From the NCBI RefSeq assembly GCF_011045215.1, contig NZ_CP049201.1: a DNA stretch of 64,000 bases; one strand, written 5' to 3'. The DNA comes from Escherichia coli (GTDB lineage Bacteria > Pseudomonadota > Gammaproteobacteria > Enterobacterales > Enterobacteriaceae). Under the pieces are notes generated by a model. The model was not told the DNA's origin, ran no database searches, and saw only the letters and a list, made by a program, of their open reading frames with translations. Within the stretch, counting starts at the first letter, position 1. Each line of letters starts with the position of its first letter. Below, piece by piece: positions 3,853 through 58,871 of the stretch. The translations under genes were made by a program, and so were the position numbers.

Positions 3853-4433
3853 TACAACTTCACCAAACCACTAAAGCCCATAAAGGCCAGAGACATAAGA
3901 CCTGCGGTAATTAACGCAATGGCATTACCGCGAAAAGGAGCCGGGACATCAGCCACAGCAAGGCGTTCGCGGATGGCTGCGAAGAGAACCATCACCAGCG
4001 AGAAACCGACAGCGGCGGAAAAACCGTACAGCGCCGACTGCAAGAAATTGTGCCCGAGATTGATATTCAGCAACGCCACGCCGAGCACTGCACAGTTGGT
4101 GGTGATAAGCGGCAAAAAAATCCCCAGCAGACGGTAAAGCACCGGGCTGGTTTTGCGCACCACCATCTCGGTGAACTGCACAACCACAGCAATCACCAGA
4201 ATAAACGCCAGGGTACGCAGGTAAATCAGATTAAGTGGGATCAAAATCCACGTATCGATAAGCCAGGCGCAAATAGACGCCAGCGTCATCACAAACGTTG
4301 TTGCCAGCCCCATGCCCATCGCGGTTTCCAGCTTTTTGGAAACTCCCATAAACGGACAGAGACCGAGAAACTTGACCAGTACAAAGTTATTGACCAGTAC
4401 AGTTCCGACAAACAGTAACAGGTAGTCAGTCAT
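3852..4433 (-). CDS. rsxA: RsxA/RnfA membrane subunit
   Basis: 193-aa hydrophobic [37 protein letters not shown]...; first gene of the rsx operon. Confidence 0.95.
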
Positions 4434-4509
4434 TTTTCGGCCTGAAATAAAAAAGCCGCCTATTATCCGTTAATCCAGAGCAGGCGACAACAGGTTAACT
4501 GTAAGGTTA

Positions 4510-4950
4510 TTACGGATTCACAAACGTCGCTTTCACCCGCGACGAGCGTTTGAAATAGGGGACGATCAATGCGGTTGCCAACAAAGTAAACAGCAACTGG
4601 CGAACGGCTATGCCATCTTCCACGGGTGAAAAAGCGAACGCTTTTACTGCCAGCAATACGGAAATAAGCAGCCAGATAATATAGTGTTTAGGAACACAAC
4701 GCCGACGTTTAAAGAAAGCGATGGTCAACCACAGTGTGTAATACCACATGGCGATAGCAGTAATAAAAGAAACGCCCCATAAGATTTGTGTCGTCAGTGC
4801 TTGTGCGCCGAGCGTTTGAAATGTTTGCGGAGAAGATAACGCAGCGGTATACAGCAACAACGCCAGCGTCGTACTTAACAGAGCGACTAAAAGCCAGGCC
4901 AACGGGCCAAGCAACCAGCCTCCAATACGTTGTGGCGTTGTGGTGGTCAT
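4510..4950 (-). CDS. ydgK: Inner-membrane protein YdgK
   Basis: ORF 4510-4974; likely start at internal Met (MTTTTPQRIGGWLLGPLAWLL...) giving 146 aa; position between rsxA and cnu. Confidence 0.85.
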   Translation of the reverse strand: MTTTTPQRIGGWLLGPLAWLLVALLSTTLALLLYTAALSSPQTFQTLGAQALTTQILWGVSFITAIAMWYYTLWLTIAFFKRRRCVPKHYIIWLLISVLLAVKAFAFSPVEDGIAVRQLLFTLLATALIVPYFKRSSRVKATFVNP

Positions 4951-5035
4951 AGGTTCTCCAGAATAGCGACGCAAACAGGCAAATCTAATTTTAGGGGCGT
5001 TATTATAAGGCTTTTATAACCGATCGCTACTTTCT

Positions 5036-5251
5036 TTATTGGACATAGTGCCAGACGGACTTCGGTACCTGGCCGAGGTCAAACAAACGCCCGCCAGAAA
5101 CCAGCTCTGCGCGACGGTGATCGGCAGCACGATACATATTGATCAGTTCCTGATCGTCCGTCAGGGTGTAATTAAGATGGTCGTAGAGTTTTTCCAGACT
5201 TTCGAGTGAACTGATTTTGCGAAATTTTAATAAGTAGTCCTGAACAGTCAT
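5036..5251 (-). CDS. cnu: Cnu (YdgT), Hha-family OriC-binding nucleoid-associated protein
   Basis: 71-aa [74 protein letters not shown]. Confidence 0.9.
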
Positions 5252-5523
5252 AAAAGGTCCATAAAATAATTAATACCAAAGGGGTAGGTATTATTAGTGA
5301 TGATAAAATTTCACCAAAAGTGAACGCTTGTGTTATTACAATAATAAGAATGCGCTGATGGCAAATATTCAGGGATGAAAAACTGCTCTGAAAAGAGTAA
5401 CGCGCTTTACTATCCCTGACAATCACCAACAACATCGAACAAGATAATAAATTCCTGGTTTAATATCCGACAAGTGAAAACATGCACCCGGACGGGCAGC
5501 ATGTCGCTCTACAAGTGCAGAGC

Positions 5524-5649
5524 TTACTTGTGTTGTACCGTAGTACTCTGTTCAGGTGGCTGATAGTTGTCAATGTGACTCGCCACGCCAAGAAGAATGA
5601 CTGAAACGACAAGAACGATCCAACCTGTTAATTCAATAAGACGATTCAT
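5524..5649 (-). CDS. blr: Blr, 41-aa small membrane protein (beta-lactam resistance / divisome-associated)
   Basis: Hand-translated minus-strand ORF MNRLIELTGWIVLVVSVILLGVASHIDNYQPPEQSTTVQHK; below the 60-aa cutoff of the ORF track; located between cnu and ydgJ. Confidence 0.8.
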   Translation of the reverse strand: MNRLIELTGWIVLVVSVILLGVASHIDNYQPPEQSTTVQHK

Positions 5650-5891
5650 TACAACTCACATCTCTGTTGATTGATCCATTAACTTCAGGGGGTAAATGTT
5701 ACTTAGCAATAATAGCTCCAGCAAGATTTTTACTGAGGTTTTTGCGATATTTAGCTTTTGTCGTTGGAAAAATCGCTATTTTTTTGACTTAAGTTAAACA
5801 ACATCCCTTATTGCTGGCAGGTTATTAAACTGTTGAGCGAGGGTAAAGGATAGTGTCAAATAGCCATCATACTTCAATGAGAGGCAATGAC

Positions 5892-6932
5892 ATGAGCGAC
5901 AACATCCGTGTTGGGTTGATTGGGTATGGTTATGCGAGCAAAACCTTCCATGCGCCCCTGATTGCGGGCACGCCCGGGCTGGAACTGGCGGTTATCTCCA
6001 GCAGTGATGAAACAAAAGTAAAAGCCGACTGGCCAACGGTTACGGTTGTCTCTGAGCCGAAGCATCTGTTTAACGATCCCAACATAGACCTGATTGTCAT
6101 TCCTACACCCAACGATACCCATTTCCCGTTAGCCAAAGCGGCGCTTAAGGCGGGTAAACATGTGGTCGTTGATAAACCCTTTACCGTGACACTGTCACAA
6201 GCGCGAGAGCTGGATGCGCTGGCAAAAAGCCTGGGGCGTGTGCTGTCTGTATTCCATAACCGTCGTTGGGATAGCGATTTCTTGACGCTAAAAGGTTTGC
6301 TAGCGGAAGGCGTGCTGGGTGAAGTTGCTTACTTTGAGTCTCATTTTGACCGCTTCCGTCCGCAGGTGCGCGATCGTTGGCGTGAACAGGGCGGCCCAGG
6401 CAGCGGTATCTGGTACGATTTAGCACCACATCTTCTTGATCAGGCTATTACATTATTTGGTTTACCGGTCAGCATGACGGTGGACTTGGCACAGTTACGG
6501 CCTGGAGCGCAGTCGACCGATTATTTCCACGCCATCTTGTCCTATCCACAGCGGCGAGTCATTTTACACGGTACCATGCTGGCAGCCGCTGAGTCAGCAC
6601 GGTATATCGTGCATGGATCCCGAGGCAGTTATGTGAAATATGGCCTCGATCCACAGGAAGAACGTCTGAAAAATGGCGAGCGTCTGCCGCAGGAAGACTG
6701 GGGCTACGATATGCGTGATGGCGTACTTACCCGCGTGGAAGGTGAGGAACGTGTCGAAGAAACGCTGTTGACGGTGCCTGGGAATTATCCGGCTTACTAT
6801 GCGGCGATTCGTGATGCGTTAAATGGCGATGGTGAAAATCCGGTTCCGGCAAGCCAGGCAATCCAGGTAATGGAGTTGATTGAGCTGGGCATCGAATCCG
6901 CCAAACATCGCGCGACTTTGTGCCTTGCATGA
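5892..6932 (+). CDS. ydgJ: Gfo/Idh/MocA-family oxidoreductase YdgJ
   Basis: ORF 5853-6932; start taken at Met 14 (MSDNIRVGLIGYGYASKTFHAPLI...) to give 346 aa; NAD-binding GxGxxS-type N-terminus. Confidence 0.9.
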   Translation: MSDNIRVGLIGYGYASKTFHAPLIAGTPGLELAVISSSDETKVKADWPTVTVVSEPKHLFNDPNIDLIVIPTPNDTHFPLAKAALKAGKHVVVDKPFTVTLSQARELDALAKSLGRVLSVFHNRRWDSDFLTLKGLLAEGVLGEVAYFESHFDRFRPQVRDRWREQGGPGSGIWYDLAPHLLDQAITLFGLPVSMTVDLAQLRPGAQSTDYFHAILSYPQRRVILHGTMLAAAESARYIVHGSRGSYVKYGLDPQEERLKNGERLPQEDWGYDMRDGVLTRVEGEERVEETLLTVPGNYPAYYAAIRDALNGDGENPVPASQAIQVMELIELGIESAKHRATLCLA

Positions 6933-6966
6933 AAAATGGATGGTGCAATTTGCACCATCCATTTTT
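6933..6966. terminator. Bidirectional intrinsic terminator between convergent ydgJ and add
   Basis: Near-perfect palindrome aaaaatggatggtgcaatttgcaccatccattttt, flanked by A-run on one side and T-run on the other. Confidence 0.6.
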
Positions 6967-6967
6967 G

Positions 6968-7969
6968 TTACTTCGCTGCGGCTTTTTCTCGCAGTGCGCG
7001 TTTTTCCTCAGCGCTGAGGAAAGCCATTTCCAGACCATTAATCTGTGCCTGGCGGATTTGCTCGCGGGATAACCCAGCAGCTGGCGCGGCAACGTTATAT
7101 TCGTGAATGATATCCACTCCCTGTACGCCGGGATCGTCAGTGTTAATGCTGGCACGAATGCCATGATCAAGGAACGTTTTCAGCGGATGTGCAGCCAGCT
7201 CAGCCACGGTGCTGGTCTGAATATTGGAGGTCAGACAGGATTCAATACCAATTTGTTGCTCGGCGAGAAAATCCATCAGCGCCCGATCTTCAATGGCTTT
7301 TACGCCATGTCCAATACGCTCCGCACCCAGTTCACGAATCGCCTGCCAGATGCTTTCCGGCCCGGCAGCTTCGCCTGCATGGACGGTAATATGCCAGCCC
7401 GCATCACGCGCGCGGTTGAAGTGGGAAAGGAACAGACTTCCCGGGAAACCAAGTTCATCACCGGCTAAATCAAGTGCGGTAATCTGGTCACGGTGGGCTA
7501 AAAAGGCTTCCAGCTCTTGCTGACAGGCGGCTTCGCCGAAGGTCCGGCTCATAATGCCGATAAGCTTCGCCTGCACACCAAAGGTGCGGCAACCTTCACG
7601 TACGCCATCGATCACCGCTTCGACAACACCCGCTACAGGCAGCTTATGTGCCATTGCCATGTAGCCTGGTGAAAAACGCAGCTCGACATAGTGCAGGCCG
7701 TTACGGGCTGCATCTTCAATGTTTTCAAATGCCACGCGGCGGCAGGCATCAAGAGAGGCGAGAACTTTAACACCCCAGTCAAGTTTGGTCAGAAAGCTCA
7801 CCAGATCGGGTTCGTTGGCAATGACCTGAACGTGGGGAATCAGTGTTTCCAGGGATTGTGCAGGAAGCGAGATATTATACTGGCGGCCAAGTTCAAGAAT
7901 GGTCTGGGGACGAATGTTACCATCAAGGTGGCGATGGATATCAGTTAATGGCAGGGTGGTATCAATCAT
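6968..7969 (-). CDS. add: Adenosine deaminase
   Basis: 333-aa [40 protein letters not shown]...; recognised as Add. Confidence 0.95.
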
Positions 7970-8072
7970 GGTCGCACTCTTTTTCTGGATATAAAAGTGC
8001 GCACCATTATAAAAACAAAGCAGGGTAAAAATCCACGATTGCGCAACAATTTTTTACGTTGCGCAATTGGGG

Positions 8073-9245
8073 TTAGCGAACAGCGCGGATGGCGTTAATT
8101 AATCCAGCCACACCTTTTTCCAGTTTCGAACGTGGGCAGCCGGCATTGAGACGGACAAAACCACGACCTTCTTCACCGTAGGTATACCCCGGCATGATCG
8201 CGACCTTTTCTTGCTCGATAAGCGCTTTTTGCAACGCGTTGTCGTCAATATTCAATGGACGTAGATCAAGCCAGGCCAGATAAGTGGATTGCGGGATCTG
8301 CCAGTTGAGTTCAGGAAACGCGGCGTTCATTTTATCTGCGATATACGTCAGGTTATCTTTCAGATAGACGCGTAAGGCATCCAGCCACGGCGCGCCTTGC
8401 TGATAGGCGGCGATATGAGCAGTTAACGCCAGTACCGAAGGGGAAGAAAGCCCATCACGGCCTTTCAGTGCCGATAAATAGGCATCGCGGCTACTGCTAT
8501 TTTCTATAATCCCGTAAGCACCGGTCAGGGCGGGAATATTGAAACTTTTCGATCCCGACGTTAGCAACGCCCAGTCTCCGCGAGCCACATTACTCCAGGG
8601 AATATGCGGCTGCTCGCCCCAAACCATATCCATATGGATTTCATCGGAAATAACCCGCACACCATGACGCTCGCACAGGTCAGCCATGATCTCCAGCTCA
8701 TCGCACGTCCACACTTTCCCGGTAGGATTCTGTGGGCTACACAGGAGCATAATTTTACATTCTGGTTTCGCCAACACGGCTTCCAGCTTGCCCATATCGC
8801 AAAACCAGCCGTCAGCCTGCTTCTCTAAAGCAACGGGCATTACTGTGCGCTGGTTACCTTCAATGGCCTTGTAAAATGCGTCATAGGCGGGCGTGTGGAT
8901 CACCACGCCTTCACCTGTTTCAGACCACTGACGAATCAGTTCTGAAACCATATAGATGACAGAAGGGCCATACACCACCGTCTGCGTATCAATTGCGGTG
9001 TAATGCTGGGTGGAAAACCAGTGGGCAATAGCCGCGAGAAATTCATCGTTTTTCCAGCGGCTGTAGCCAAATACGCCGTGCATCAGGCGCTGATTCAGCG
9101 CCTCGATAATGCAGGGGGCAGTGGCAAAATCCATGTCTGAAATCGTGAACGGTAACAGGTCAGCAGTGCCGAAACGGTCAGCGACATAATCCCACTGTGT
9201 ACACCATGTGCCATGACGATCCACGACCTTTGAAAAATCGAACAT
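8073..9245 (-). CDS. malY: MalY, PLP-dependent cystathionine beta-lyase and MalT modulator
   Basis: 390-aa ORF MFDFSKVVDRHGTWCTQWDYVADRFGTADLLPFTISDMDFATAP...; immediately downstream of malX. Confidence 0.95.
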   Translation of the reverse strand: MFDFSKVVDRHGTWCTQWDYVADRFGTADLLPFTISDMDFATAPCIIEALNQRLMHGVFGYSRWKNDEFLAAIAHWFSTQHYTAIDTQTVVYGPSVIYMVSELIRQWSETGEGVVIHTPAYDAFYKAIEGNQRTVMPVALEKQADGWFCDMGKLEAVLAKPECKIMLLCSPQNPTGKVWTCDELEIMADLCERHGVRVISDEIHMDMVWGEQPHIPWSNVARGDWALLTSGSKSFNIPALTGAYGIIENSSSRDAYLSALKGRDGLSSPSVLALTAHIAAYQQGAPWLDALRVYLKDNLTYIADKMNAAFPELNWQIPQSTYLAWLDLRPLNIDDNALQKALIEQEKVAIMPGYTYGEEGRGFVRLNAGCPRSKLEKGVAGLINAIRAVR

Positions 9246-9254
9246 ATCTTATCC

Positions 9255-12050
<2,796 letters not shown>

Positions 12051-12161
12051 TCCTCTCTTTATCTGCTATACCTGGTAGTGTCCTTTCCTCAAGGTTAATG
12101 ATAAAAAATGTGGCACACAGGCGGTGCCTTTTATTTTTACTGAAGTTCACAGGAGGTTTAT

Positions 12162-12929
12162 GTGTTTAATTCTGACAACCTGAGACTCGACGGAAAATGC
12201 GCCATCATCACAGGTGCGGGTGCAGGTATTGGTAAAGAAATCGCCATTACATTCGCGACAGCTGGCGCATCTGTGGTGGTCAGTGATATTAACGCCGACG
12301 CAGCTAACCATGTTGTAGATGAAATTCAACAACTGGGTGGTCAGGCATTTGCCTGGCGTTGTGATATTACTTCCGAACAGGAACTCTCTGCACTGGCAGA
12401 CTTTGCCGTCAGTAAGCTGGGTAAAGTTGATATCCTGGTTAACAACGCCGGTGGCGGTGGTCCTAAACCGTTTGATATGCCAATGGCGGATTTTCGCCGT
12501 GCTTATGAACTGAATGTGTTTTCTTTTTTCCATCTGTCACAACTTGTTGCGCCAGAAATGGAAAAAAATGGCGGTGGCGTTATTCTGACCATCACTTCTA
12601 TGGCGGCAGAAAATAAAAATATAAACATGACTTCCTATGCATCATCTAAAGCTGCGGCCAGTCATCTGGTCAGAAATATGGCGTTTGACCTGGGTGAAAA
12701 AAATATTCGGGTAAATGGCATTGCGCCGGGGGCAATATTAACCGATGCCCTGAAATCCGTTATTACACCAGAAATTGAACAAAAAATGTTACAGCACACG
12801 CCGATTAGACGTCTGGGCCAACCGCAAGATATTGCTAACGCAGCTCTGTTCCTTTGCTCGCCTGCAGCCAGCTGGGTAAGCGGACAAATTCTCACCGTCT
12901 CCGGTGGTGGGGTACAGGAGCTCAATTAA
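12162..12929 (+). CDS. hdhA: 7-alpha-hydroxysteroid dehydrogenase (SDR family)
   Basis: 255-aa ORF with GTG start, MFNSDNLRLDGKCAIITGAGAGIGKEIA...; SDR TGxxxGIG motif; AGGAGG RBS 6 nt upstream. Confidence 0.95.
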   Translation: MFNSDNLRLDGKCAIITGAGAGIGKEIAITFATAGASVVVSDINADAANHVVDEIQQLGGQAFAWRCDITSEQELSALADFAVSKLGKVDILVNNAGGGGPKPFDMPMADFRRAYELNVFSFFHLSQLVAPEMEKNGGGVILTITSMAAENKNINMTSYASSKAAASHLVRNMAFDLGEKNIRVNGIAPGAILTDALKSVITPEIEQKMLQHTPIRRLGQPQDIANAALFLCSPAASWVSGQILTVSGGGVQELN

Positions 12930-13157
12930 TACACTAACGAACCGGTAAACAGCCGTATGTGTTGTTTACCGGGATAGCGTGTGCAATTCATCAACGTCTC
13001 TGCTAAACAACTGGCAGCCAAATCACGGCTATTGGTTAACCAATTACTGGGTGAAAAGTAAACGAATAGAGTGTGCCTTCGCACTATTCAACAGCAATGA
13101 TAGGCGCTCACCTGACAACGCGGTAAACTAGTTATTCACGCTAACTATAATGGTTTA

Positions 13158-13748
13158 ATGATGGATAACATGCAGACTGAAGCACAACCGACACGGACCC
13201 GGATCCTCAATGCTGCCAGAGAGATTTTTTCAGAAAATGGATTTCACAGTGCCTCGATGAAAGCCATCTGTAAATCTTGCGCCATTAGTCCCGGGACGCT
13301 CTATCACCATTTCATCTCCAAAGAAGCCTTGATTCAGGCGATTATCTTACAGGACCAGGAGAGGGCGCTGGCCCGTTTCCGGGAACCGATTGAAGGGATT
13401 CATTTTGTTGACTATATGGTCGAGTCTATTGTCTCTCTCACCCATGAAGCCTTTGGGCAACGGGCGCTGGTGGTCGAAATTATGGCGGAAGGGATGCGTA
13501 ACCCACAGGTCGCCGCCATGCTTAAAAATAAGCATATGACGATCACTGAATTTGTTGCTCAGCGGATGCGTGATGCCCAGCAAAAAGGCGAGATAAGCCC
13601 AGACATCAACACGGCAATGACTTCACGTTTACTGCTGGATCTGACCTACGGTGTACTGGCCGATATCGAAGCGGAAGACCTGGCGCGTGAAGCGTCGTTT
13701 GCTCAGGGATTACGCGCGATGATTGGCGGTATCTTAACCGCATCCTGA
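13158..13748 (+). CDS. uidR: UidR, TetR-family repressor of the uid operon
   Basis: 196-aa ORF MMDNMQTEAQPTRTRILNAAREIFSENGFHSASMKAICKSCAISPGTLYHHF... Confidence 0.95.
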   Translation: MMDNMQTEAQPTRTRILNAAREIFSENGFHSASMKAICKSCAISPGTLYHHFISKEALIQAIILQDQERALARFREPIEGIHFVDYMVESIVSLTHEAFGQRALVVEIMAEGMRNPQVAAMLKNKHMTITEFVAQRMRDAQQKGEISPDINTAMTSRLLLDLTYGVLADIEAEDLAREASFAQGLRAMIGGILTAS

Positions 13749-14086
13749 TCCTCTCATTTCGCGGGCTGGTGATAACTGTGCCCGCGTTTCATACTTTAAT
13801 TTCCCTGTACAAAATACAATCTCCCCGGGATCGGAGAATTCCCCCCCCCAAAATATTCACCGTAGCCATATGTCATGAGAGTTTATCGTTCTCAAGATGC
13901 TCGAACGAACGTTCGATTGCTTATTTTATGGCTTCTGTCAACGCTGTTTTAAAGATTAATGCGATCTATATCACGCTGTGGGTATTGCAGTTTTTGGTTT
14001 TTTGATCGCGGTGTCAGTTCTTTTTATTTCCATTTCTCTTCCATGGGTTTCTCACAGATAACTGTGTGCAACACAGAATTGGTTAA

Positions 14087-17319
<3,233 letters not shown>

Positions 17320-17357
17320 TATTCTATAAAAATAATCAGAACATCAAAGGTGCAACT

Positions 17358-18623
17358 ATGAGAAAAATAGTGGCCATGGCCTTTATTTACCTGACGGCTG
17401 CCTCTGGCCTTACCTCTGCTTACGCGGCGCAACTGGCTGACGATGAAGCGGGACTACGCATCAGATTGAAAAACGAATTGCGCAGGGCTGATAAGCCCAG
17501 TGCTGGCGCGGGAAGAGATATTTACGCATGGGTACAGGGAGGATTGCTCGATTTCAATAGTGGTTATTATTCCAATATTATTGGCGTTGAAGGCGGAGCG
17601 TATTATGTCTATAAATTAGGTGCTCGTGCTGATATGAGTACCCGTTGGTATCTTGATGGTGATAAAAGTTTTGGCTTTGCCTTGGGTGCGGTAAAAATAA
17701 AACCGAGTGAAAATAGTTTACTTAAATTAGGTCGCTTCGGGACGGATTATAGTTATGGTAGCTTACCTTATCGTATTCCGTTAATGGCTGGCAGTTCGCA
17801 ACGTACATTACCGACTGTTTCTGAAGGAGCATTAGGTTATTGGGCTTTAACGCCAAATATTGATCTGTGGGGAATGTGGCGTTCACGAGTATTTTTATGG
17901 ACCGATTCAACAACCGGCATCCGTGATGAAGGGGTTTATAACAGCCAGACGGGAAAATACGATAAACATCGCGCACGTTCTTTTTTAGCCGCCAGTTGGC
18001 ATGATGATACCAGTCGCTATTCTCTGGGGGCATCGGTACAGAAAGATGTCTCCAACCAGATTCAAAGTATTCTGGAGAAAAGCATTCCGCTCGCTCAGGA
18101 TTATGCGCTGAAAGGGGAGTTGCTTGGCTTTTACGCGCAACTCGAAGGCTTAAGTCGTAATACCAGCCAGCCCAATGAAACGGCGTTGGTTAGTGGACAA
18201 TTGACCTGGAGTGCGCCGTGGGGAAGCGTTTTTGGTAGTGGTGGTTATCTGCGTCATGCGATGAATGGAGCTGTAGTGGATACCGACATTGGCTATCCCT
18301 TTTCATTAAGTCTTGATCGTAACCGTGAAGGAATGCAGTCCTGGCAATTGGGCGTCAATTATCGTTTAACCCCGCAATTTACGCTGACATTTGCGCCGAT
18401 TGTGACCCGCGGCTATGAGTCCAGTAAACGAGATGTGCGGATTGAAGGCGCGGGTATCTTAGGTGGTATGAACTATCGGGTCAGCGAAGGGCCGTTACAA
18501 GGGATGAATTTCTTTCTTGCTGCCGATAAAGGGCGGGAAAAGCGCAACGGCAGTACGCTGGGCAATCGCCTGAATTACTGGGATGTGAAAATGAGTATTC
18601 AGTATGACTTTATGTTGAAGTAA
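17358..18623 (+). CDS. uidC: UidC outer-membrane glucuronide porin-like protein
   Basis: 421-aa ORF with N-terminal signal peptide (MRKIVAMAFIYLTAASGLTSAYA) and C-terminal aromatic residue typical of beta-barrels. Confidence 0.9.
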   Translation: MRKIVAMAFIYLTAASGLTSAYAAQLADDEAGLRIRLKNELRRADKPSAGAGRDIYAWVQGGLLDFNSGYYSNIIGVEGGAYYVYKLGARADMSTRWYLDGDKSFGFALGAVKIKPSENSLLKLGRFGTDYSYGSLPYRIPLMAGSSQRTLPTVSEGALGYWALTPNIDLWGMWRSRVFLWTDSTTGIRDEGVYNSQTGKYDKHRARSFLAASWHDDTSRYSLGASVQKDVSNQIQSILEKSIPLAQDYALKGELLGFYAQLEGLSRNTSQPNETALVSGQLTWSAPWGSVFGSGGYLRHAMNGAVVDTDIGYPFSLSLDRNREGMQSWQLGVNYRLTPQFTLTFAPIVTRGYESSKRDVRIEGAGILGGMNYRVSEGPLQGMNFFLAADKGREKRNGSTLGNRLNYWDVKMSIQYDFMLK

Positions 18624-18624
18624 G

Positions 18625-18660
18625 AAAAAACGCCGGAGTGAAAATCCTCCGGCGTTTTGG
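18625..18660. terminator. Bidirectional intrinsic terminator between convergent uidC and ydgA
   Basis: Stem cgccggag / ctccggcg with 8-nt loop, flanked by A6 and T4 runs. Confidence 0.6.
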
Positions 18661-18667
18661 CTGTGAA

Positions 18668-20176
18668 TTACTGCTGCGGAATAGCGGGTACAGCCGGAAC
18701 GTTTAATGCCGGCATCGCAAACATACCAACAAAATCTTCCAGTGGCATTTTCTGCCCGTTTAACGTGATCTGACCGTTAGCATATTGCAGGCTGGTGGTG
18801 ATGGTGTTGTCCTGCAAGGTGGTCAGACGGAACATCTGGCCCATTGCTGATGCGCCTTCAACTTGCTGTTTCGCCAGCTTTTTCGCTTGATCTTCCTGAT
18901 AACCTTCCAACTTCGCTACCTGAGTCATCAGTTCAGTTGCCATATCGACCGGAATGGTCAGTTTCGCATCCAGAGATTTAACCGAACGATCTACTTCCTG
19001 CGCCAGCGTTTGCGGCGCTTCTTTAGTCGTTGCCGGATCTTTCAGGAACAACGACAGATTCAGCGCACTTTCACCCTGACTGTTTTTCCAGCTTAGTGGC
19101 GCGATAGTAATCACCGGATCGCCTTTCAACATCAGCGGCAGGGCGCTAAAGAAGGCTTCCGTCACTTTCTCCTGATAAAGTTCGGGATTGTTGGCAATTT
19201 CTGGCTGTGCCAGCAGCGCCTGAGTTTGCGCGTTATATTGCTGGCTAAACTGATGCCAGGCTTCACCATCAATCTGGCCGACTTTTAAAGTCAGCTTGCC
19301 GCTGCCCAGATCCTGATTCTGTACCTTCAGGCTGTTTAGCGAGTAATCCAGTTGGCTATTGATCGTTTTACCGTCATTGACCAGATCCGATTTACCGCTG
19401 ATCTCCATGCCTTCCAGCAGTGCCAGTTCTTTGCCTTCCACTGAAATGGTCATTTTTTCCAGTGACAGTTTTTGGTTTCCTACGCGCTCACCAAAACTTG
19501 CCAGCGTGCTGGAACCGTCGGTTTTCAGATTATTAAAGGTCAACTGCACTTTCTGGTTGTATTCGTTAACTGCGTCTATCCGACCACTTTGCGCCTCCCC
19601 GGAAAGGGAGATAGCTTTGCCGTCTCTGTCCGCATTTAACTGGAACTCGCCGCCGCTAAAGGCGACTTTTTCATCCTTTTGCTCGTAATTCAGCGGATTG
19701 AGCGAAATATCGGAACTGGAATCACCGCTGTAACCAATGCGCGAGTTAATCTCAAAAGGCGTTTCACCTTTTGCCATATCAAACAGTGGTTTGCTTACTT
19801 CGTTATTAACCAGCGTGGTTTGAATTGATGCCATCGATGGGATCAGGTTCAGTTTTTTAAGCTGGGCAAGGGGGAAGGGACCATGATCAACCGATTCGTT
19901 GAAGATGACGCTCTGACCGCTTTTAATCCACGGATTTTCTTTCCCGGCAATGGGTTTCACCAACAGTTGCAACTGGCTGCTGAATACGCCGCGATGATAG
20001 TTTTGATAACTCACTTCCAGGTTGGATTCAGGAGCTGTCAGTTTAAGTTGCGCGTTCGCCTGCGCGACCATCTCTTCGAGATGGGTTTCAATCTTCTTGC
20101 CTGTATACCATGCGCCGCCTGTCCAGACTACGCCTAGCGCAACAATGACGCCTACCGCTACCAGCGATTTATTCAT
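18668..20176 (-). CDS. ydgA: YdgA, DUF945 periplasmic protein
   Basis: 502-aa ORF MNKSLVAVGVIVALGVVWTGGAWYTGKKIETHLEEMVAQ...; conserved position between uidC and manA. Confidence 0.85.
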   Translation of the reverse strand: MNKSLVAVGVIVALGVVWTGGAWYTGKKIETHLEEMVAQANAQLKLTAPESNLEVSYQNYHRGVFSSQLQLLVKPIAGKENPWIKSGQSVIFNESVDHGPFPLAQLKKLNLIPSMASIQTTLVNNEVSKPLFDMAKGETPFEINSRIGYSGDSSSDISLNPLNYEQKDEKVAFSGGEFQLNADRDGKAISLSGEAQSGRIDAVNEYNQKVQLTFNNLKTDGSSTLASFGERVGNQKLSLEKMTISVEGKELALLEGMEISGKSDLVNDGKTINSQLDYSLNSLKVQNQDLGSGKLTLKVGQIDGEAWHQFSQQYNAQTQALLAQPEIANNPELYQEKVTEAFFSALPLMLKGDPVITIAPLSWKNSQGESALNLSLFLKDPATTKEAPQTLAQEVDRSVKSLDAKLTIPVDMATELMTQVAKLEGYQEDQAKKLAKQQVEGASAMGQMFRLTTLQDNTITTSLQYANGQITLNGQKMPLEDFVGMFAMPALNVPAVPAIPQQ

Positions 20177-20189
20177 AATGATTATCCAT

Positions 20190-20221
20190 AAAATGAAATC
20201 AGGCGGACTGGCCGCCTGAAG
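20190..20221 (-). terminator. Putative intrinsic terminator downstream of manA
   Basis: On the minus strand: hairpin tcaggcggccagtccgcctga followed by tttcatttt. Confidence 0.5.
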
Positions 20222-20276
20222 GTGTTATAAGCCTTTAATAAGCTTAGCAAGAGATGTTAATTTTTTCAGTAAGCTC

Positions 20277-21452
20277 TTACAGCTTGTTGTAAACACGCGC
20301 TAAACGGCCGTGGCCTTTAACAGTCACCGGTGATTCGTTGGCGGCAATAAACGCTGATTCACCCGGTTTAAGCTGTAACTGCTGAGAACCTTTACACAGC
20401 GTTGCATCGCCTTCGACACAGAACAAAATGGCGGCACTCTGCTGGCTAATGGTGGTTTCTTTATCACTAAGGTCATGCAGCGAGAAGGCAAAATCATCAA
20501 CAGGAATCGGGAAGTCCAGTTCTGCACCTTGTTTCACCGGCTGGGTCAACAACTGGTTAGCCGGTTTGGCTTCGAACTTCACATTGGCAACCAGTTCCGG
20601 AATATCAATGTATTTAGGCGTCAGACCCGCACGCAGCACGTTATCGGAGTTTGCCATCACTTCCAGCGCCACGCCTTGCAGGTAAGCGTGCGGTGTTTCA
20701 GCGAACAGGAACATCGCTTCGCCAGGATTCAATTTCACCACATTCAGCAACAGCGGAGAGAACAGGCCGCTGTCATCCGGGTAAAATTCAGAAATTAAAC
20801 GAATCGTTTGCCACGGTTCACCCTGCTGACTGTCGAGCGCCGATTTTAAAATCGCCAGCGCGCGGGATTTTTCTTCACCCTGCATATTCAACAGGCTGGC
20901 GAACAGTTCGCTTAAACGTTCGGCATCAGGCTGTTGTAAAAAGTGAGCAATCGCCGGATGTGCACCTGCGACCGGCTGGAGTAGGGAGACAATCTCGGAA
21001 AATTCACGAAACGCGTTCATCGCAAGGAAAGGCGTCAGCGCAAAAACCAGCTCCGGCTTGTGGTTAGGATCTTTATAGTTACGCTCGGCGGCATCCATCG
21101 GGATACCTGCGGCATTTTCTTTGGCAAAACCGATTTCAGAATTGTGTTTGTTTGGATGAACCTGAATGGAGAGTGGCTGTGCTGCGCATAATACTTTGAA
21201 CAGGAAAGGCAGTTCGCCAAAGCGTTTGGCAACGGCCTCTCCGAGCAGAGTCGATTTATCACTCTCAATCACATCACGCAGTGAAACGATATCTCCGGCG
21301 GCATTCTGCACTCGTGAACTGCTTTTCGGATGTGCGCCCATCCACAGCTCGGCCATCGGCTGGCTGGACGGATTTTCCATACCATAAAGTTCAGTCAACG
21401 CCGTTTTGCTGCCCCAGGCATAGTTTTGCACTGAGTTAATGAGTTTTTGCAT
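20277..21452 (-). CDS. manA: Mannose-6-phosphate isomerase
   Basis: ORF 20277-21530; start taken at Met 27 (MQKLINSVQNYAWGSKTALTELYGMENPSSQPMAELWMGAHP...) giving 391 aa. Confidence 0.95.
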   Translation of the reverse strand: MQKLINSVQNYAWGSKTALTELYGMENPSSQPMAELWMGAHPKSSSRVQNAAGDIVSLRDVIESDKSTLLGEAVAKRFGELPFLFKVLCAAQPLSIQVHPNKHNSEIGFAKENAAGIPMDAAERNYKDPNHKPELVFALTPFLAMNAFREFSEIVSLLQPVAGAHPAIAHFLQQPDAERLSELFASLLNMQGEEKSRALAILKSALDSQQGEPWQTIRLISEFYPDDSGLFSPLLLNVVKLNPGEAMFLFAETPHAYLQGVALEVMANSDNVLRAGLTPKYIDIPELVANVKFEAKPANQLLTQPVKQGAELDFPIPVDDFAFSLHDLSDKETTISQQSAAILFCVEGDATLCKGSQQLQLKPGESAFIAANESPVTVKGHGRLARVYNKL

Positions 21453-21650
21453 GATCAATCCCTGTTTTAATGTGGAAATTAATCCCGCTATTAAAGCAAG
21501 AATCCTACGGGAAGTAACCTGGAGCCGCAAAAAGTCGTACTAGTCTCAGTTTTTGTTAAAAAAGTGTGTAGGATATTGTTACTCGCTTTTAACAGGGCAA
21601 CGGAACACCCGCCCAGAGCATAACCAAACCAGGCAGTAAGTGAGAGAACA

Positions 21651-23297
21651 ATGTCAAACAAACCCTTTCATTATCAGGCTCCTTTTCCACTCAAAAAAGA
21701 TGATACTGAGTATTACCTGCTAACCAGCGAACACGTTAGCGTATCTGAATTTGAAGGGCAGGAGATTTTGAAAGTCGCACCCGAAGCGTTAACTCTGTTG
21801 GCGCGTCAGGCGTTTCATGATGCGTCGTTTATGCTGCGTCCGGCGCACCAACAACAGGTGGCCGACATTCTGCGTGACCCGGAGGCCAGCGAAAATGATA
21901 AATATGTGGCGCTGCAATTCCTGCGTAACTCCGACATCGCGGCGAAAGGCGTTCTGCCAACCTGTCAGGATACCGGCACCGCGATTATTGTTGGTAAAAA
22001 AGGGCAGCGTGTATGGACCGGTGGTGGTGATGAAGCGGCGCTGGCACGCGGTGTCTATAACACTTATATCGAAGATAATCTGCGCTACTCGCAAAACGCG
22101 CCGCTGGATATGTATAAAGAAGTGAATACTGGCACCAATCTGCCAGCGCAGATCGATCTTTATGCCGTTGATGGCGACGAATACAAATTCCTCTGTATCG
22201 CCAAAGGTGGTGGTTCGGCAAACAAGACGTATCTCTATCAGGAAACCAAAGCGTTACTGACGCCGGGGAAACTGAAAAATTACCTGGTTGAGAAGATGCG
22301 CACGCTGGGTACGGCGGCCTGTCCTCCGTATCATATTGCGTTCGTTATTGGTGGAACTTCTGCAGAAACGAACCTTAAAACGGTGAAACTGGCTTCCGCG
22401 AAATACTATGATGAACTGCCAACGGAAGGGAATGAGCACGGTCAGGCGTTCCGCGATGTGGAACTGGAAAAAGAATTGCTGATCGAAGCGCAAAATCTTG
22501 GTCTGGGTGCGCAGTTTGGTGGTAAATACTTCGCTCACGACATCCGCGTGATTCGCCTGCCACGTCACGGCGCATCCTGCCCGGTCGGTATGGGCGTCTC
22601 CTGTTCTGCTGACCGTAATATCAAAGCGAAGATCAACCGTCAGGGGATCTGGATCGAAAAACTGGAACATAATCCAGGCAAATATATCCCGGAAGAGCTG
22701 CGCAAAGCGGGAGAAGGCGAAGCGGTGCGCGTTGACCTTAACCGTCCGATGAAAGAGATCCTCGCACAGTTGTCGCAGTATCCCGTTTCTACACGCTTAT
22801 CGCTTAACGGCACGATTATCGTCGGTCGTGATATTGCTCACGCCAAACTGAAAGAGCGGATGGATAACGGTGAAGGGCTGCCGCAGTACATCAAAGATCA
22901 TCCGATTTACTACGCGGGTCCGGCCAAAACGCCGGAAGGTTATGCCTCCGGTTCTCTTGGCCCAACGACCGCCGGACGGATGGATTCTTATGTCGATCAA
23001 CTGCAAGCGCAGGGCGGAAGTATGATCATGCTGGCGAAAGGCAACCGCAGCCAGCAGGTGACGGATGCCTGTAAAAAACACGGCGGCTTCTACCTTGGCA
23101 GTATCGGTGGTCCGGCCGCTGTATTGGCGCAGGGAAGTATTAAGAGCCTGGAATGTGTTGAATATCCGGAACTGGGAATGGAAGCCATCTGGAAAATTGA
23201 AGTGGAAGATTTCCCGGCGTTTATCCTTGTGGATGATAAAGGAAATGACTTCTTCCAGCAGATACAACTCACACAATGTACCCGCTGTGTGAAATAA
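21651..23297 (+). CDS. fumA: Fumarate hydratase class I (aerobic)
   Basis: 548-aa [48 protein letters not shown]... Confidence 0.97.
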
Positions 23298-23302
23298 ACA
23301 GA

Positions 23303-23327
23303 GCCGCCCTTCGGGGCGGTTTTTTTA
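23303..23327 (+). terminator. Intrinsic terminator after fumA
   Basis: gccgccc-ttcg-gggcggt hairpin followed by T7, 6 nt after the fumA stop codon. Confidence 0.7.
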
Positions 23328-23439
23328 CATGGCACGAAAGACCAAACATTTGTTATCAAATAGTAAATAATGAGTGAGCTAAAAGTTGCTTAACGAAAGC
23401 AAAACAGAAAGAAAAAATTAATCAGGTGAGGAGCAGGCC

Positions 23440-25802
<2,363 letters not shown>

Positions 25803-57851: not shown

Positions 57852-58871
57852 ATGAAAAGCATATTAATTGAAAAACCGAATCAACTGGCGATTGTCGAAC
57901 GTGAAATACCCACCCCGTCAGCGGGTGAAGTACGAGTAAAAGTGAAACTTGCCGGAATTTGTGGTTCAGATAGCCATATTTATCGTGGGCATAATCCTTT
58001 TGCGAAATATCCGCGCGTCATTGGACATGAATTCTTTGGCGTCATTGATGCGGTGGGTGAAGGTGTGGAAAGCGCCAGAGTCGGTGATCGTGTTGCTGTC
58101 GATCCGGTGGTCAGCTGTGGTCATTGCTATCCGTGCTCAATAGGTAAGCCGAACGTTTGTACGACACTCGCTGTATTAGGTGTGCACGCTGACGGTGGTT
58201 TCAGTGAATATGCTGTGGTTCCGGCAAAAAATGCGTGGAAAATTCCTGAAGCATTGGCCGATCAATATGCGGTAATGATCGAACCTTTTACCATTGCGGC
58301 TAACGTAACCGGTCATGGTCAACCGACTGAAAATGATACCGTTCTGGTTTATGGTGCCGGTCCAATCGGCCTGACGATCGTTCAGGTATTAAAAGGCGTC
58401 TATAACGTTAAAAATGTGATTGTTGCCGATCGCATTGATGAACGACTGGAAAAAGCGAAAGAGAGCGGGGCTGACTGGGTGATTAATAACAGCCAGACAC
58501 CGCTTGGCGAGATTTTCGCTGAAAAAGGCATAAAGCCGACATTAATTATCGATGCGGCTTGTCATCCTTCTATCCTGAAAGAGGCCGTAACGCTGGCTTC
58601 TCCAGCGGCACGTATTGTATTGATGGGCTTCTCCAGTGAACCGTCTGAAGTGATTCAGCAAGGAATTACCGGAAAAGAACTCTCTATTTTCTCTTCACGC
58701 TTAAATGCAAATAAATTCCCGGTCGTTATCGACTGGTTAAGTAAAGGGTTAATTAAACCAGAAAAATTAATTACCCATACGTTTGATTTCCAGCATGTTG
58801 CTGATGCCATTAGTTTATTTGAACAGGATCAAAAACATTGCTGCAAAGTCTTACTCACTTTTTCTGAATAA
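57852..58871 (+). CDS. rspB: RspB, Zn-dependent alcohol dehydrogenase family
   Basis: ORF 57828-58871; start taken at MKSILIEKPNQLAIVEREIPTPSAGEVRVKVKLAGICGSDSHIY... giving 339 aa. Confidence 0.95.
   Translation: MKSILIEKPNQLAIVEREIPTPSAGEVRVKVKLAGICGSDSHIYRGHNPFAKYPRVIGHEFFGVIDAVGEGVESARVGDRVAVDPVVSCGHCYPCSIGKPNVCTTLAVLGVHADGGFSEYAVVPAKNAWKIPEALADQYAVMIEPFTIAANVTGHGQPTENDTVLVYGAGPIGLTIVQVLKGVYNVKNVIVADRIDERLEKAKESGADWVINNSQTPLGEIFAEKGIKPTLIIDAACHPSILKEAVTLASPAARIVLMGFSSEPSEVIQQGITGKELSIFSSRLNANKFPVVIDWLSKGLIKPEKLITHTFDFQHVADAISLFEQDQKHCCKVLLTFSE

Follow-up and report, generated by a model that had tools for sequence, protein, structure and literature searches.

Phase-variable poly-C tracts are known from the fim promoters of Bordetella pertussis, and poly-G/poly-C spacers of this kind from Neisseria porA/opc. 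Such runs separate an activator site from the -10 element, or the -35 element from the -10, and their length sets the geometry of the promoter. The nine-base C run described here, located between uidR and uidA in a 64-kb stretch of Escherichia coli DNA (the whole of which is referred to as the window), shares with the fim and porA/opc tracts its position upstream of a regulated gene, its poly-C composition and a length that appears to vary by slippage. Unlike them, the uidR-uidA tract has all conserved elements downstream of it; one third of strains carry an interrupted form, and length is stable in clonal series. We know of no evidence of switching at this tract.

Control of the uid operon in E. 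coli K-12, as described by Blanco and colleagues in 1985 and by Little and colleagues in 2018, reportedly involves two UidR/GusR operators, O1 and O2, together with a UxuR operator and dependence on CRP. The tract falls within the uidR-uidA spacer that K-12 uid operon studies treat as 'the regulatory region'. It differs from the K-12 uid elements in that O1, 52 bp further downstream, is conserved, whereas the tract itself is not. Both K-12 and BL21 are said to show normal GusR control in the uid studies of Blanco (1985), Little (2018) and Pellegrino (2023). The K-12 and BL21 tracts are shorter than that of the window, or interrupted.

The intergenic mononucleotide simple-sequence repeats (SSRs) of Escherichia were surveyed by Ishiya & Nakashima 2022 (PMC8928963). 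In that survey, longer runs are enriched outside genes, C/G runs form a rare class (A+T : G+C = 11.6 : 1), and C runs of at least 6 bases have a mean length of 6.22 +/- 0.57, against which C9 is an outlier. Like the surveyed repeats, the uidR-uidA tract is a non-coding, single-base run of at least 6 that appears to vary between strains by replication slippage; unlike typical Escherichia C runs, it reaches 9-10 bases against a mean of 6.2. The locus is mentioned neither in the survey nor elsewhere in the literature searched. We propose, with a probability of roughly 0.8, that C9 is a near-neutral mononucleotide microsatellite in the spacer that separates the uidR terminator from the uidA control region. 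On this reading the tract is an ordinary member of the intergenic mononucleotide microsatellites.

The genes and elements of this part of the window are as follows:
13158-13748, plus strand: uidR, a 196-aa ORF, in agreement with the RefSeq annotation of orthologous loci.
13760-13786, plus strand: terminator-like hairpin of uidR, GCGGGC...GCCCGC (-17.1 kcal/mol, z = -3.7).
13787-13900, no strand assigned: poorly conserved spacer holding the C tract, with about 8x the diversity of the promoter-proximal part.
13836-13841, no strand assigned: GAATTC, an EcoRI site made up of GAATT and the first C of the run.
13841-13849, plus strand: C9 mononucleotide run, polymorphic in E. coli from C5/C6 to C10, or broken by T, A or G.
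13850-13853, plus strand: A4 run adjoining C9, polymorphic too, from A3 to A5.
13901-13919, no strand assigned: candidate UidR (GusR) operator O1, TCGAACGAACGTTCGATTG, with a perfect 10-bp palindromic core, kept across four genera.
13921-14137, plus strand: nearly invariant uidA control region.
14001-14016, plus strand: putative CRP-like site, TTTGA-N6-TGTCA, assigned from conservation.
14052-14076, plus strand: dyad within the uidA control region.
14079-14087, plus strand: putative UxuR/ExuR-like box, TTGGTTAAC, assigned from conservation.
14101-14109, plus strand: putative UxuR/ExuR-like box, GGTTGACCA, assigned from conservation.
14126-14131, plus strand: Shine-Dalgarno sequence GAGGAG, conserved across genera.
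14138 onwards, plus strand: uidA, a 603-aa ORF, in agreement with the RefSeq annotation of orthologous loci.

The nine Cs occupy positions 13841-13849 of the plus strand in the context GGAGAATT-CCCCCCCCC-AAAATATT (more widely, GATCGGAGAATT CCCCCCCCC AAAATATTCACC). They lie 93-101 nt downstream of the uidR stop and 289 bp upstream of the uidA ATG at 14138. Direct reading and a run-length scan both confirm the original prediction of a C9 run at this position, following GAATT. The run is the longest of C or G in the 64 kb, the runners-up being C5 and G7; the scan found no C6, C7 or C8 run in the window, and C9 is an outlier against the window's own run-length distribution. The expected number of C9 runs on the plus strand is 0.15 under an iid model and 0.07 under a first-order Markov model. 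Dinucleotide-preserving shuffles gave a mean of 0.32 for either strand, with at least one such run in 20 of 100 shuffles. A single C9 per 64 kb is uncommon and statistically unremarkable. The tract locus is single-copy in every genome examined, and a dispersed repeat or mobile-element remnant was rejected on the ground that the sequence occurs in one place per genome.

The 389-bp uidR-uidA spacer was found in 5,419 of 5,426 complete E. coli genomes. No spacer among these complete genomes is identical to that of the window, the best match being PapM-32-1 at 99.5%. Tract length was followed with a 64-bp probe centred on the tract, the net indel being taken from the query and subject spans. A sample was drawn at 60 evenly spaced ranks from about 5,414 complete genomes, and one representative per class was fetched and aligned. 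Compared across E. coli genomes in this way, the tract is not invariant in length. The proposal that it is prone to slippage is borne out by forms ranging from C5/C6 to C10, by additional interrupted forms, and by the occurrence of the same length on different haplotypes.

The allele C9A4 is carried by the window, PapM-32-1 and K99B, and by E166 on a different background. Further uninterrupted alleles are C8A4, C8A3, C7A5, C6A5, C6A4 and C6A3. Among the 60 ranks, the K-12 type C6A4 accounts for about one third (~33%), C7A5 for roughly 12%, C6A5 for roughly 8% and C8 for roughly 3-5%. Some alleles resemble C-to-A changes at the boundary between the two runs (C8A4 vs C7A5). The interrupted alleles comprise CCCCCGCC, CCTCCCC (O157:H7), CCTCCCT, CCCACCT (B2, including ST131) and CCCCCT. 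Together they make up ~35% of genomes, which agrees with the 1,946 genomes that match the probe at 80-90% identity. The span is constant within each interrupted type among the sampled rows, which number only about 20. A variable-gap pattern across the tract retrieved only two metagenome contigs (C6A5 and C6A4), with no new alleles.

Single-unit differences recur between near-identical sequences. Spacers at least 99% identical to that of the window over 389 bp carry C7 (O169:H41), C8 or C9, and K99B differs by one additional C from the C8 haplotype CE0026a, whose three SNPs it shares. An equivalent series is found on an unrelated haplotype with flanks of the APEC/E166 type, where 50 genomes have C9, at least 8 have C10 and further ones have C8, as confirmed by reading the sequences. 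The polymorphism and its recurrence on different backgrounds are thus observed directly. With nine uninterrupted bases, C9 is also above the length of about 6-8 at which a run can slip. Homopolymer slippage is an established mutational mechanism. Since single-base length changes recurring on different haplotypes point to slipped-strand mispairing, we infer slippage as the mechanism: equal lengths appear to have emerged several times over, one base at a time, on separate backgrounds, and this pattern is the signature of that process.

The ninth C of the window could instead be a homopolymer sequencing or assembly error, the true allele being C8. Long-read and flow-based sequencing are known to be error-prone in runs of eight or more. 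With flanks identical to those of the window (exact 64-mer), 266 genomes have C8 and two have C9 (PapM-32-1 and K99B), making C8 133 times commoner, and the nearest complete genome is only 98.7% identical over 20 kb, too distant to serve as a check. Against such an error, C9 and C10 are found in dozens of independent assemblies, strain E166 has C9 in both of its two independent assemblies, and PapM-32-1, the closest spacer haplotype (99.5%), likewise has C9. We therefore consider the error unlikely, and even a true C8 allele would leave the locus a species-level polymorphic microsatellite. The suspicion of a sequencing soft spot keeps some force for the window, given the 266 to 2 count for its flanks, but does not extend to the species-level polymorphism seen across dozens of assemblies.

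Tract length is constant, at consensus level, in the clonal and re-sequenced sets compared, namely five Ec-042 T0/T5/T20 isolates, the EC21Z isolates, the two independent assemblies of E166 and K-12 derivatives. No sign of rapid phase variation was seen at this level in those sets.

When positions 4000-24000 of the window were compared with the 5,426 complete RefSeq E. coli genomes, the best identity over the 20 kb was 98.7%. The top matches over 20 kb differ from the top matches of the spacer alone. The window's lineage, which could be Shigella or an unusual one of E. coli, seems to be absent from the genome collection, or the region to be mosaic.

A passage in Pellegrino et al. 2023 states that deleting 'the high-affinity O1 site' abolished GusR control (PMC9881133), and the supplement to that paper lists the O1-deletion primers DE6279/DE6280, which join CATACTTTA to GCGATCTATATC (PMC9881133 supplement). 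The published 162-bp deletion maps to positions 13799-13960 of the window and takes in both the tract and O1. As both are removed, the experiment does not separate the tract from O1. The only strong dyad in the deleted piece is that of O1, TCGAACGAACGTTCGA (13901-13916), which starts 52 bp downstream of the tract. At up to 3 mismatches, no second O1-like site was found in the 64 kb save a chance-level 3-mismatch match at 58149, and helical phasing across the tract was rejected because the window has no second site of this kind. The positions given here for operator and promoter are based on the published deletion boundary and on conservation. A consensus sigma-70 scan found no plus-strand promoter anywhere in the spacer and so could not place the uidA promoter, whose position is bracketed by conservation alone.

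The gusR-gusA loci of Enterobacter hormaechei, Cedecea colo and Buttiauxella sp. were reached via UidR homologues that are 57-66% identical. The two genes are divergently arranged in these three genera and in tandem in E. coli. In each of the four genera, the O1 block TCGAAYGAACGTTCGRTTG (13901-13919) is 228-244 nt away from the start of gusA. The four genera also share the following blocks, given in window coordinates:
13937-13942: GTCAAY.
13986-13991: TTGCAR.
14001-14016: CRP-like TtTGA-N6-TnTCA.
14058-14063: GMTAAY.
14080-14109: UxuR/ExuR-like TGGTTAAC and GGTTGACCA.

Upstream of O1, no alignment between the genera was found, and the three non-E. coli spacers contain no run of five or more Cs or Gs. 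In E. coli the layout seems to have been rearranged immediately upstream of O1, at the site of the tract. The tract is located at an E. coli-specific junction between the 3' end of uidR and the conserved control region. It is not itself a UidR operator, as it contains no dyad apart from the chance GAATTC and is missing from the other three genera. The gene uidR is reported to be absent from E. albertii and E. fergusonii (PMC6790063). As regards an outgroup, one genome-contig scan for a 20-mer of the invariant promoter region matched only a 242-bp contig, which starts just 3' of the tract. This contig belongs to an Alkalicoccobacillus porphyridii assembly, has low coverage, and holds uidA-upstream DNA of an O157/H6-like haplotype. 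Judging from its sequence, it is evidently E. coli contamination in a Bacillus-group assembly.

Diversity within E. coli follows the same division. Pairwise diversity (pi) in a sample of 16 haplotypes falls from 0.161 in 13801-13900 to 0.047 across O1 and 0.019 in 13921-14137. The 100 bp around the tract are thus the most variable of the spacer, with eightfold the diversity of the promoter-proximal part. Upstream of the tract, the sampled E. coli haplotypes have no conserved sequence in the spacer other than the uidR terminator. The position of the tract relative to the conserved blocks is observed directly, and every element that is conserved, or a candidate for control, lies on one side of it, downstream. 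Because all of these elements are downstream, a change in length cannot alter the spacing between operator and promoter, as the original prediction had suggested it might. Nor does the tract lie among promoter and operator elements, where it had been expected, the O1 palindrome and all of the blocks common to the four genera being downstream. This cross-genus footprint, which locates O1 and the other conserved boxes downstream of the tract, is more useful than the tract itself.

The same evidence bears on the idea of a contingency (phase-variable) tract, in which slippage would reset the spacing or phasing of regulatory sites and thereby switch or tune uidA. Bordetella fim promoters do switch via C runs. 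The length of the uidR-uidA tract is variable and its changes recurrent, and the tract lies 52 bp from O1, within the fragment whose deletion abolishes GusR control. As positioned by conservation, however, the run does not fall between functional promoter and regulator sites: the conserved elements are all on one side, and only the uidR terminator is conserved upstream. In around one third of genomes the run is interrupted and so unable to slip, clonal series are fixed in length, and other genera have the same O1 and promoter layout without any run. We regard phase variation through this tract as extremely unlikely.

Within the conserved control region, a polymorphic site is located at 14111-14122, just upstream of the Shine-Dalgarno sequence. 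The allele TATTTTTATCTT is present in the window and in most strains, TATTATTATCTT in K-12, CE0026a and K99B, and TATTTTTATTTG in PapM-32-1, BL21-type strains and others. These changes fall in candidate -10-like hexamers and could be more relevant to uidA expression than the C tract is.

The hairpin of uidR lies upstream of the C tract and is followed by an imperfect U stretch. The spacer beyond it (13787-13900) is C-rich and G-poor, with 27 C and 9 G in 13790-13867. The RefSeq genomes listed have no feature annotated at the tract, and Rfam gave no match at E <= 1 over 13600-14300. RNA folding around the tract is no better than that of shuffled sequences on either strand (z = 0.5 and 0.0), and the minus-strand terminator-like matches beside the tract were rejected on this basis. 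It is a direct observation that the tract is without conservation, structure or coding potential.

A function at the RNA level was nonetheless considered, in which the C-rich, G-poor patch would be a rut site in uidR read-through RNA, backing a weak terminator and shielding uidA from uidR transcription with an efficiency modulated by tract length. Among activators of Rho, poly(C) is the best known. The 78 nt of 13790-13867 rank in the top 0.2% of windows for their 27 C and 9 G; the region is unstructured, the uidR hairpin is followed only by the imperfect U stretch, and the allelic variants are all still pyrimidine-rich. The patch has the make-up looked for in a rut site (C-rich, G-poor and unstructured over ~70-80 nt), which is weak evidence given ~50 comparable regions in the window. 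Indeed, ~50 regions in the 64 kb have an excess of C over G of at least 16, which makes this composition nondistinctive; in K-12, B2 and other haplotypes, the excess in the patch is only 11-14. The sequence of the patch is not conserved, and a literature search found no link between uidR and Rho. A rut site is therefore decidedly unlikely. The pyrimidine-richness of all variants could reflect either descent or a weak compositional constraint.

We attach still less weight to a heritable effect, in which tract length would tune the amount of transcription that passes the uidR terminator and enters uidABC, a tightly repressed operon, possibly via Rho loading. This seems very unlikely. If it were true, basal beta-glucuronidase would differ between lineages according to whether their tracts are C5 to C10 or interrupted. 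Such tuning of read-through into uidA would amount to heritable strain variation in gut beta-glucuronidase, of relevance to drug-glucuronide reactivation.

The run could also be read as the Pro-Pro-Pro codons of a GTG-initiated 78-aa ORF at 13769-14005. This ORF exists mechanically. Its frame is broken among the alleles, which differ by 1, 2, 3 or 4 bases in addition to changes in the A run, and no CDS is annotated there in the RefSeq genomes inspected. The probability that the run is coding is close to negligible.

We return to the near-neutral microsatellite as the preferred reading. The spacer around the tract would be non-functional or only weakly constrained. Slipped-strand mispairing during replication would add or remove single Cs and so give rise to lineage-specific lengths, while point substitutions that break the run (CCTCCCC, CCCACCT, CCCCCGCC) would stabilise the tract. 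The C9 of the window is most simply explained as a +1 derivative of the common C8 on the same haplotype. A change in length would only shift the uidR terminator relative to the downstream elements, with little or no effect expected on uidA expression. Neutrality, like slippage, is in this respect what we infer.

The tract is an ordinary hypermutable spacer repeat, of little consequence as it stands. Its practical implications concern the handling of sequences. Assemblies and variant callers will disagree at the homopolymer, and length differences are consequently not to be read as regulatory mutations. Cloned 'gus regulatory region' constructs differ in tract length according to their source strain. 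The gene uidA is widely used for E. coli detection, and the tract provides a cheap marker beside it that is lineage-informative and prone to homoplasy.

A (CT)n run at 13749-13756, directly 3' of the uidR stop, is also length-polymorphic among E. coli. The window has TCCTCTCA there, K-12 and B2 types have TCTCTCTC(T), and E166 reaches TCCTCTCTCTCTCTTTCC. With this run, the uidR-uidA spacer contains a second, small microsatellite. As for the flanking genes, uidR and uidA are both intact in the window. RefSeq annotation records an internal stop in uidR of TB06051 and in uidA of 2018-05-2CC, making each a pseudogene.

On the other side of uidR, the hdhA-uidR spacer contains a perfect 14-bp palindrome, ATTGGTTAACCAAT (13031-13044), ~114 nt before the uidR ATG. 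It resembles the gusR-adjacent TTGGTCAACCAA palindromes of Enterobacter and Cedecea, as well as the TTGGTTAAC and GGTTGACCA boxes before uidA. ATTGGTTAACCAAT probably serves as an operator of the UxuR/ExuR type (GntR family) for the control of uidR.
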